A DNA stretch of 64,000 bases from Escherichia coli (GTDB lineage: Bacteria; Pseudomonadota; Gammaproteobacteria; Enterobacterales; Enterobacteriaceae), in the NCBI RefSeq assembly GCF_003790525.1, contig NZ_CP033635.1; one strand, given 5' to 3'. A program made the position numbers. Positions 30,701 to 33,700 of this stretch are shown here, in pieces. Numbering within the stretch: the first letter of the stretch is position 1; every line of letters starts with the position of its first letter.

Positions 30701-33700
30701 CAGAACAATAACAGACAGAACGGCAGCCATACCGAAGCTGGCAGCGATAGCAAAGGAGCGTTTAGCGAAGGCGAAGTCACGACCTTTCAGCATATACCAT
30801 GCGCTGATACCGAGGATGAACATCGCGCCAGTCACATAACCAGACGCTACAGTGTGAACGAATTTCACCTGAGCAACCGGGTTAAGCACCAGCTCGGAGA
30901 AGCTCACCATCTCCATACGCATAGTTTCAAAGTTGAAATCGGACGCGATTGGGTTTTGCATCCAGCCGTTCGCAACCAGAATCCACAGTGCGGACAGGTT
31001 TGAACCGAGCGCCACCAGCCAGGTGACACACATATGCTGAACTTTACCCAAACGATCCCAACCGAAGAAGAACAGACCTACAAAGGTGGATTCGAGGAAG
31101 AAGGCCATTAGACCTTCGATTGCCAGCGGCGCACCGAAGATATCCCCTACATAGTGGGAATAGTAAGACCAGTTAGTCCCGAACTGGAACTCCATGGTCA
31201 GACCGGTAGCCACACCCAGAGCGAAGTTGATACCAAACAACTTGCCCCAGAACTTGGTCATATCTTTATAAATCTGTTTGCCGGAAAGGACGTAGACCGT
31301 TTCCATAATGGCCAGCAGGAACGCCATACCGAGCGTCAGTGGCACAAAAAGGAAGTGGTACATCGCGGTCAAGGCAAACTGTAAGCGCGACAGTTCGACT
31401 ATATCTAACATCATGACTCCTTGCTCATCGCATGAAGACTCCGAGAGTGAACCCCGTTAGAAAGGGTCACACGCATGCCCCAATACAAAATTATTTGCTC
31501 GCCTCTATCGTTGCCATTTCATCAAAAGAGGAAAAGACAATGATAAAAAAGTTACAAATATGTTAATGAATAAACCAAATTGATCCCGTAATTATATTAC
31601 GCCGCAAAATCCTTACAATAAACAGGTTTTTATTGAGCAAATTTGCATTTTTCGACAGTGATCAATTTATAGCGAAATTGTCACGATCTCACCAATTTGA
31701 TCTACGACAATTTATCGTGTTTTGCAGATTTTTTTCAAGAATTAAAAATTGATTTATATCAAAACCAACCAAATATGTTAATTATGTATAAACCATAGAT
31801 CATTGGTGATTTTATTGTTAATTTATTGTGAAATATTTATGCAACACAATTATTACAATGAAAAGGTATAGATAAAAAACCAGTGTTTTATTTAACAGAA
31901 CCGCCTTATCCACTTTTTATAATACCAATTGATTAGATTAGCCAATTTGTTGCTATTTTACATAACATATTTTTATCAAAGTTAATTGATTGTTGCCTTT
32001 ATGAGCACCGGCCGTAAGCACGTTATGTTATTGTTTCATTAGTAATAATCACTTAAATGTATCGATGAAACAGGTATGACTTAGCGGGAGTGATTGTTTC
32101 TGAGTGAACAGAGACCACTTTAGCCTGATAAATGAAAAATGAGCGATTTTTGCAAGTTAGTTTTTCTATAGCCGAGTACGCTCAGCGCCTCGCTTGATTA
32201 CAATGAGGTTGCTGCTATGAGTCCTGATAATATCGGTTCGGCTGTCAATCGCTTCTCAGGTTGGCCATCTAATGATCCTCTAAAAACAGATAACGAATCA
32301 ATGACATCACCCGTGGCTGTGCAGGTAATAAAGATGATTGCCGCCATCCTTGACCCATATCGGATAGTCGTTGGAATCGATACACTTTATACAACGCAGC
32401 GCGAAACATTTACCTCAGAGAGTCAACAGCTCATTGAATCAGCATTGCAAACACTTCATGTGATAAATTTAAATAACCTGGAAACAAATCTCGATGAGGA
32501 CGGTCACTATCTGGCTTTTGGATATAACGTTGACACTCCTGACAGAATAACCGTTTCTGCTTATAATGAAAAAAAGCCTGGCTGCTATGGCCAATGTCTT
32601 TTAATACAGGATGACGAAACAGACTTATTTAACCTGATAAAAGTTAAAATTTTTGAAGCCAGGCATAATTATGTCGCTCAATTGATGAGAGATCCGGAAT
32701 TTATGTTCAAATTTAGTTATAGCGCTCAACAAAATAGATTAGAACCTCATCTTCTGGTTCCCACTTATTTCCCTCTAAAAACAAACGAACCGGTTACGCA
32801 AGAGGATGTACTGTTACTTTATCGTTTCTTTAAAATGGATGGTGATTTTAATATATTAACATCAGATGAATACATGAGTATCATGACACCTCTGATGAAG
32901 TGTGAGCGTAGCATCCACGACCACAACAGGTATGTGACGGGCAAAGATACCCTTCTTCTGGACTATCCTCCTTCTGGTAACCAGATATATTTCCATATTT
33001 TTCCTGACGAATCAGCAACACTAGTCCTTTATTTTTCAAACAATGACATTGAATGTTTCGTCTTTGAAAGAGATATTCCGAGCCAGTATCGCTTTTTCAA
33101 AATGTTTACCAATCTGGCACTGGTTATTGATCAGTTAACTGATGCCAATCAAATACTTTAATTTTTATATATTCCCTGTGGCAAATATTGCTAAACAATG
33201 CCTGGGGATTAATTTTTATTACTCACGGAAAGATTTAAATAATGATCCCATCTCAAATCTCTTTCAACACCCTTCCTGTCAATGCAACATACGCTTCAGA
33301 GACAACAGTTGACACACAAAAATTCTCTGACATCCTCTACTCAGCGGGGTGTTCCCTAAAGGATCTGGCTTATCTGAGCAGATGTCTGGCATCAATACAT
33401 CCGACTATCGCCAAAAACATTTATGAAACAGAAAATCTCAGCGATCAAAAATTACTACATATTGATTGCCGTAGTACAAATGAAATCAAGATAAATATCT
33501 TTTTTGGTCAACAACGAGAAGGATTAATTGAAATTAATTCTGACACTGTCATTTTTTCGATATTGTCTTCATTAATTGACTCCGCCATTTCTAAATTTCA
33601 ACACCAAATCCCCGTTAACGGTTCAGTTAATCGTGAACTATTGTATGAGGATTATACTGATTAAATCCACCCAGTCGCGAAAATGGCCTGCGTTATTGCC

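Follow-up and report, generated by a model that had tools for sequence, protein, structure and literature searches.

The AT-rich spacer upstream of cydA in an SMS-3-5-type Escherichia coli is probably, for the most part, the native cydAB control region

A window of 64,000 nucleotides from Escherichia coli (contig NZ_CP033635.1, assembly GCF_003790525.1) includes the cydA gene for subunit I of cytochrome bd-I, an AT-rich spacer of 802 bp, and a divergently oriented open reading frame (ORF) of 314 codons, designated ORF314. Positions 31000-34700 of the window are a 100% match to the chromosome of E. coli SMS-3-5. Approximately 600-640 bp of the spacer, from 31412 to ∼32000-32050, is best explained as the native control region of cydABX-ybgE, the SMS-3-5 ortholog of the K-12 region, and we put the probability of this reading at about 85%. 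The remaining 165-215 bp (∼32000/32053 to 32216) presumably carry the ORF314 promoter and 5′ untranslated region. The original prediction, made from the sequence of the window, described an AT-rich tract of about 800 bp that includes a perfect FNR-type palindrome, forms a complex cydAB regulatory region and runs directly into the 314 aa ORF. This description proved accurate, but the region and its FNR site are already known as the textbook cydAB control region, and the observation, while correct and beyond chance, is ordinary.

Regulatory elements between cydA and ORF314

The spacer lies directly upstream of cydA-cydB-cydX-ybgE. Its G+C content falls to a minimum of 26.8% in a 400 bp window (31600-31999), and that of cydAB is ∼51-57%. 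An AT-rich spacer precedes cydA in every genome examined, with a length of 680-846 bp and 33-37% G+C, and is longer in ST131 (1542 bp, 33.7% G+C), where a TPR gene is upstream. The upstream gene is otherwise mngB in K-12 and Salmonella bongori, a gene for a pyridoxal phosphate-dependent decarboxylase in three other Enterobacteriaceae genomes, or ORF314. The long AT-rich leader (∼700 bp) is a property of cydA, whatever gene is found upstream.

The FNR-type palindrome, TTGATTTATATCAA, is located exactly where it had been predicted, and the 64 kb contain no other perfect TTGAT-N4-ATCAA. Dinucleotide shuffles gave a mean of 0.03 matches, with any match in only 3 of 100. Conservation at the homologous position is more telling than this chance test. 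A perfect palindrome is found at -346 to -351 from the cydA ATG in all eight upstream regions compared, representing 4-5 genera (K-12, SMS-3-5, ST131, an E. albertii-like strain, S. bongori, two other Enterobacteriaceae and Yokenella regensburgei). It starts at -348 in K-12 and at -351 in SMS-3-5, and the K-12 counterpart identified by alignment is TTGATATTTATCAA, the four spacer bases of the two palindromes being different (ATAA versus ATTT). The K-12 cydAB site, at -53.5, lies under an FNR ChIP-seq (chromatin immunoprecipitation sequencing) peak (Myers 2013), and this spacing was used to place the start of promoter P1 in the window. With the start so placed, the two FNR sites would be centred at -53.5 and -1.5, the second and weaker one being 52 bp downstream of the first and overlapping the start. 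By position and conservation, the palindrome is the predicted canonical FNR-1 site of cydAB P1 and not a feature linked to an island.

Three ArcA ChIP-seq regions have been reported upstream of K-12 cydA, at about -600 to -570 (the strongest), -421 to -370 and -155 to -125 from the ATG (Park 2013). A position weight matrix (PWM) was built from the boxes in Table S3 of that study, leaving out the three cydA boxes, and orientations were scored relative to cydA transcription. The spacer contains 7 matches of at least 14 bits where 0.16 would be expected from dinucleotide shuffles, and three of the four matches of at least 17 bits in the 64 kb fall within it. The predicted boxes agree with the three K-12 sites in both position and orientation, and at the sequence level the spacer thus carries all three putative ArcA regions. 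Boxes at about -150 and -418 are present in all eight sequences (the K-12 -418 box scoring 12.3 bits), and a distal box at -567 to -590 in seven, S. bongori being the exception.

The cydAB region of K-12 is described in the work of Cotter (1997), Govantes (2000), Myers (2013) and Park (2013). It shares with the window the same operon, the FNR palindrome ∼350 bp upstream with its second site at the same separation, the P1 hexamers, ArcA boxes at about -150, -420 and -570/-590, and a long AT-rich spacer (846 bp, compared with 802 bp here). The neighbouring genes differ, as K-12 has a co-directional mngB with a repeat element in place of the divergent orphan ORF314.

Throughout its length the spacer is colinear with two E. 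albertii-type sequences. Identity to these is 88-100% up to 31800 and 90% around the distal ArcA boxes, drops to its lowest level in the stretch listed in Table 1, and rises again near ORF314. In ST131, which has no ORF314, homology to SMS-3-5 runs from cydA to 32052 with 90.5% identity, so that ST131 retains the three ArcA clusters and, apart from ORF314 itself, lacks no more than the final 165 bp of the spacer. From the end of the ST131 homology and the identity minimum, we infer a functional boundary of the cyd region at about 32000-32050. The opposite end of the spacer is the most constant, and the leader nearest cydA includes a 21-codon upstream ORF (31476 to 31411, minus strand) that has no annotation in K-12 and whose TGA overlaps the cydA ATGs. 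Searches of Rfam with E values up to 1 detected no RNA family over 31300-34300.

Table 1. Features of the cydA–ORF314 region (positions in the 64,000 nt window; distances are from the cydA ATG).
Feature	Position	Strand or orientation	Remarks
cydA (cytochrome bd-I subunit I)	29843-31414	-	From ORF list; RefSeq start is the second ATG, 31411
cydA-proximal leader, ∼110 nt	∼31411-31520	-	100% identical in six aligned Escherichia sequences; rest of spacer varies
Whole cydA–ORF314 spacer	31415-32216		802 bp, 32.9% G+C
ArcA box AAGTTACAAATATGTTAA, 20.2 bits	31549-31566 (-155 to -138)	+ (opposite to cydA)	Counterpart of K-12 site cydA3
Promoter-like TTGTAA-16-TATAAT, 10 of 12	31591-31618	-	Conserved in K-12
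Third FNR-like element TCGACAGTGATCAA, 2 mismatches	31652-31665		Conserved in K-12
FNR-2, TTGATCTACGACAA, 2 mismatches	31697-31710		Over P1 -10 hexamer and start; K-12 homolog TTGTTCTCGATCAA
P1-like promoter TTGAAA-18-TAAATT	31709-31738	-	Predicted start ∼31702, leader ∼290 nt
FNR-1, perfect palindrome	31749-31762		Centred 53.5 bp upstream of predicted P1 start
BLAST homology limit to K-12-type control region	31787		No residual similarity farther upstream
Overlapping ArcA box, 14.7 bits	31804-31821 (-410 to -393)	+ (opposite to cydA)	Same cydA2 cluster
ArcA box TTGTTAATTTATTGTGAA, 20.6 bits	31815-31832 (-421 to -404)	+ (opposite to cydA)	Counterpart of K-12 cydA2
Distal ArcA box TTGATAAAAATATGTTAT, 17.3 bits	31962-31979 (-568 to -551)	same as cydA	Positional counterpart of K-12 cydA1
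Distal ArcA box AAGTTAATTGATTGTTGC, 14.0 bits	31979-31996 (-585 to -568)	opposite to cydA	Abuts TTGATAAAAATATGTTAT; positional counterpart of cydA1
Least conserved stretch	32050-32100		54% identity to E. albertii-like sequences; putative cyd/ORF314 boundary
ORF314-proximal block	32118-32216	+	80-88% identical to E. albertii-like sequences; GAGG at 32205-32208
ORF314 (WP_012311832; ECs_0767 in Sakai)	32217-33161	+	Putative Escherichia-restricted orphan protein gene
ORF140 (ECs_0766 in Sakai)	33242-33664	+	Hypothetical gene

These elements are observed, with their positions and conservation, in the DNA itself; binding of the proteins and the regulatory outcome in SMS-3-5 would follow by analogy with K-12. 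On that analogy, cydA would be transcribed mainly from P1. Under anaerobiosis, FNR would occupy the palindrome and the weaker site at the start point, leading to repression. Phosphorylated ArcA (ArcA-P) bound at the three box clusters, ∼150, 420 and 570-590 bp upstream of the ATG, would displace H-NS from the AT-rich DNA and raise microaerobic expression. For the K-12 mngB–cydA spacer, five promoters are reported, together with multiple binding peaks of RNA polymerase and a flag for H-NS (Shimada 2014 among the sources), and ArcA is thought to act there as an anti-repressor that relieves H-NS repression. The feature of the spacer that would attract H-NS is its AT-richness, and H-NS binding and aerobic repression would be carried over from the K-12 literature.

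Several points weigh against assigning the spacer to cydAB control. The regulator assignments are all drawn from sequence and from experiments in K-12. Upstream of about -376 the SMS-type sequence cannot be aligned with K-12, which makes the two distal ArcA clusters analogues by position rather than demonstrated homologs. As for the five-promoter set P1-P5, only the P1-like hexamers and three other consensus matches were identified by a sigma-70 scan of the spacer, a count no higher than in shuffled sequence, and the scan misses P1 of K-12 itself. The same shortcoming makes its failure to find a promoter for ORF314 weak evidence. The promoter-like sequence at 31591-31618 is possibly one of the downstream cyd promoters.

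The original prediction further proposed that the neighbouring genes may share or perturb the oxygen-responsive control of cytochrome bd. The second proposal is not borne out, as FNR-1, FNR-2, the P1 hexamers and the three ArcA clusters are all at their usual distances, and E. albertii has the same colinear spacer, as does ST131 (a strain without ORF314) as far as position 32052.

Shared control, in which ORF314 would be under the same oxygen-responsive regulators as cydAB, is rather unlikely. Its likeliest route would be silencing of the AT-rich tract by H-NS and relief of this silencing by ArcA-P bound to the distal boxes, with direct use of FNR being less likely. The distal boxes (31962-31996) come to within 220 bp of the ORF314 start codon, and one is oriented towards ORF314; the spacer (33% G+C) and ORF314 (38% G+C) make a typical H-NS substrate. 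This distance and composition leave room for ArcA or H-NS effects, and either may spill over onto ORF314. H-NS and a proposed anti-repressing ArcA in the K-12 spacer are in keeping with such a route, and there are known divergent regions in which ArcA sites act on both genes. One of these, sdhC/gltA, resembles the cydA–ORF314 region in having an AT-rich spacer between divergent genes and several ArcA sites. However, unlike sdhC/gltA, the arrangement of ArcA and FNR sites seen here also occurs in genomes without any divergent gene, and it therefore needs no second target. At least 455 bp separate FNR-1 and FNR-2 from the start codon of ORF314, and both are spaced to suit cydA P1, a geometry that argues against direct use of FNR by ORF314. 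An FNR-dependent promoter of ORF314 would have its site centred about 41.5 bp (class II) or at least 61.5 bp (class I) before the transcription start. Between the cyd elements and the ORF314-proximal block there is the stretch of low conservation (54% identity). Near ORF314 there is a single FNR-like match, at 32194-32207, with 2 mismatches; it is 10-23 bp before the ATG and immediately precedes the Shine-Dalgarno sequence. The scan that misses K-12 P1 detected no sigma-70-like promoter on the plus strand of the spacer, no sigma-54 -24/-12 motif was seen by eye around the TTGCA at 32152, and a literature search by locus tag, covering ECs0766, ECs0767 and Z0897-Z0899, gave nothing of relevance and no expression data for ECs_0767 or Z0899. 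A bolder version, in which ArcA-P at the distal boxes would lift H-NS in both directions, ORF314 would serve as a microaerobic partner of cytochrome bd-I, and the split between K-12 and SMS types would give lineage-specific oxygen curves of bd-I expression, is decidedly unlikely.

ORF314 and its relation to the glutamate-fermentation cluster

By comparative analysis, ORF314 is predicted to be a genuine, fast-evolving protein gene that is restricted to Escherichia and has no known relatives. As a real, lineage-restricted orphan, it may be a second useful by-product of the analysis. Homologs were confined to E. coli, E. albertii (64-67% identity) and Escherichia sp. MOD1-EC7003, and a word-indexed search recovered nothing beyond this Escherichia family and its fragments. 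An exhaustive HMMER profile search of 1.84 billion cluster representatives recovered only fragments of the ORF314 family, and searches of Pfam, NCBIfam and PADLOC gave nothing above noise for ORF314, ORF140 or the 258 aa ORF of the E. albertii-like strain. Near-identical copies of ORF314 are also present in metagenome bins labelled Citrobacter sp. and Collinsella sp., on contigs that are 98-99.5% identical to the E. coli region, and these are probably mis-binned E. coli DNA. ORF140 was considered as a paralog of the ORF314 C-terminus and rejected (BLASTP E = 1.8, with Smith-Waterman scores no better than shuffles).

The comparison with the E. albertii-like copy bears on whether the gene is instead a decaying relic, with the spacer consisting only of cyd control DNA plus junk. 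The two copies differ by 219 substitutions with no indels and no stops, where 7.9 stops would be expected by simulation (P = 3e-4). Substitutions are most common at third codon positions (97, compared with 68 at first and 54 at second positions), and the frame is open over 314 codons across a synonymous divergence (dS) of 0.52, while the longest stop-free run in each of the other five frames is 31-71 codons. The Shine-Dalgarno sequence and 100 bp of upstream sequence are conserved. The largest ORF314 cluster has 3343 member sequences and is represented by the full-length 314 aa protein. All of this argues against decay. A relic would nonetheless fit with the absence of family matches and of homologs outside Escherichia among the 1.84 billion representatives, and with the poor AlphaFold2 model from a 4-sequence alignment (predicted local distance difference test score 42, predicted template modelling score 0.35), which was too poor for a fold search. 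The ratio of non-synonymous to synonymous substitution (dN/dS) is also high, in the range 0.4-0.6; it is 0.44 relative to the E. albertii-like copy, and for cydA it is 0.011 relative to the copy in the E. albertii type strain. The homolog is frameshifted near codon 189 in this type strain (NBRC 107761), is interrupted or diverged in MOD1-EC7003 and is intact in the E. albertii-like contig, and the gene is missing from ∼79% of complete E. coli genomes. Frameshift, disruption and frequent absence mark ORF314 as dispensable, but taken with the open frame we consider it very unlikely to be a relic.

The gene cluster past ORF140 is the glutamate-fermentation (methylaspartate) cluster of O157:H7 (Kronen and Berg 2015, PMC4682846), a paper that does not discuss the spacer or ORF314, the subjects here. 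Within E. coli, ORF314 and this glm cluster co-occur and have the same count (1135 genomes). However, the E. albertii-like strain and E. albertii NBRC 107761 both carry ORF314 between cydA and sucD with neither the glm cluster nor mng genes, and thus ORF314 is not confined to genomes with glm/mal genes. Since cydA–ORF314 is present in E. albertii-type genomes lacking the cluster, ORF314 does not belong to it obligatorily but is rather a long-standing neighbour of cydA. The original prediction that the island abuts the cyd region is correct in that accessory DNA begins beside it, but ORF314 is not the edge of the island.

Divergence of the K-12-type and SMS-type regions

In the proximal 380 bp, the SMS type shares 94.8% identity with the E. 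albertii-like sequence and 96.1% with ST131, but only 77.6% with K-12. This comparison covered 31412-31787 of the window and 7086-7458 of the K-12 locus. Beyond this segment, local and global alignment tests for residual distal homology between the K-12 and SMS types gave z scores of ∼0. The S. bongori proximal 380 bp is 79-81% identical to either type, and identity between the K-12 and SMS-3-5 cydA coding sequences is 98.9%. The same core gene, cydA, is therefore preceded by regions that are less than 90% identical or non-homologous, and the K-12 cydAB control region appears from these identities to be a deeply divergent 'switched' allele.

Among 5426 complete E. coli genomes, the sucD–cydA interval occurs as three haplotypes. 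The K-12 haplotype (mngRAB and the 846 bp spacer) was found in 3170 genomes, the SMS-3-5/O157:H7 haplotype (ORF314, ORF140 and the glm cluster, with no mng genes) in 1135, and the ST131 haplotype (mngA, mngB, the TPR gene and the 1542 bp spacer) in ∼1110. The ST131 type carries a gene for a 396 aa TPR-repeat protein and ∼900 bp of extra AT-rich DNA between mngB and the cyd region. The K-12 spacer includes, immediately after mngB, a repetitive extragenic element of ∼150 bp with matches at ∼40 sites in each E. coli genome; the SMS-3-5 spacer lacks this element. An ancestral SMS-type arrangement with K-12 as the derived form was considered but given up as a firm conclusion, since S. bongori has mngRAB–cydA like K-12. 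The mngB–cydA arrangement is thus shared by S. bongori and K-12, and the ORF314–cydA arrangement by E. albertii and SMS-3-5.

Core genes with alternative upstream regions, divergent or non-homologous and occurring in discrete haplotypes, have been described under the names of switched intergenic regions and horizontal regulatory transfer (Oren 2014, as cited in Thorpe 2018, PMC5890482). The cydA locus resembles these, but differs in that the architecture of regulator sites is kept across the switch, and rewiring is therefore not implied. It is highly improbable that the accessory DNA altered cydAB regulation by displacing or replacing upstream elements so that bd-I expression differs: the low identity of the SMS and K-12 types in the proximal 380 bp, their lack of alignment beyond -376, and the expression differences tied to switched intergenic regions in other cases would favour it, but the difference does not follow the island (ST131, without ORF314 and the cluster, has an SMS-type region, as does E. 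albertii), the known elements are at the same distances in both alleles, and it is the K-12 type, not the SMS type, that is the divergent allele.

The K-12 region, on which all experiments on cydAB regulation are based, is carried by ∼58% of complete E. coli genomes. In sequence it is as far from the regions of O157:H7, ST131 and E. albertii as from that of Salmonella, with the FNR and ArcA layout kept, and this provides a natural experiment on which promoter features matter.

Gene content of the surrounding locus

Downstream of cydA on the minus strand are cydB, cydX, ybgE, ybgC and the tol-pal genes. On the plus strand, ORF140 is followed by glmS, glmL, glmE, genes for methylaspartate ammonia-lyase, an AtuA-family protein and a DUF4387 protein, and then by those for a dicarboxylate/amino-acid symporter and a class I fumarase (FumD), cobO, a LysR-type regulator gene and sucD. 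The Sakai layout is the same as that of SMS-3-5, with the cluster between sucD and cydA.

Conditions for expression of the glutamate-fermentation cluster were not found by Kronen and Berg (PMC4682846). Outside the cydA–ORF314 spacer, the 64 kb contain just one further strong ArcA-box match, ATGTAAAAATAATGTTGA (18.7 bits, 33830-33847, minus strand), which is located in the ORF140–glmS spacer (30% G+C), ∼365-380 bp upstream of the annotated glmS start. The box is identical in O157 and Escherichia sp. MOD1-EC7003, and may be a lead to these conditions.

Two further observations concern genes elsewhere in the window. At ∼19000-19551, zitB is a pseudogene with an internal stop in the SMS-3-5 annotation. 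The tolA gene (25400-26400) exhibits an extreme AT skew, down to -0.73, and internal self-similarity, which presumably reflect the repetitive Ala/Lys/Glu-rich central domain; TolA ranges from 390 to 451 residues among the strains whose loci were compared.

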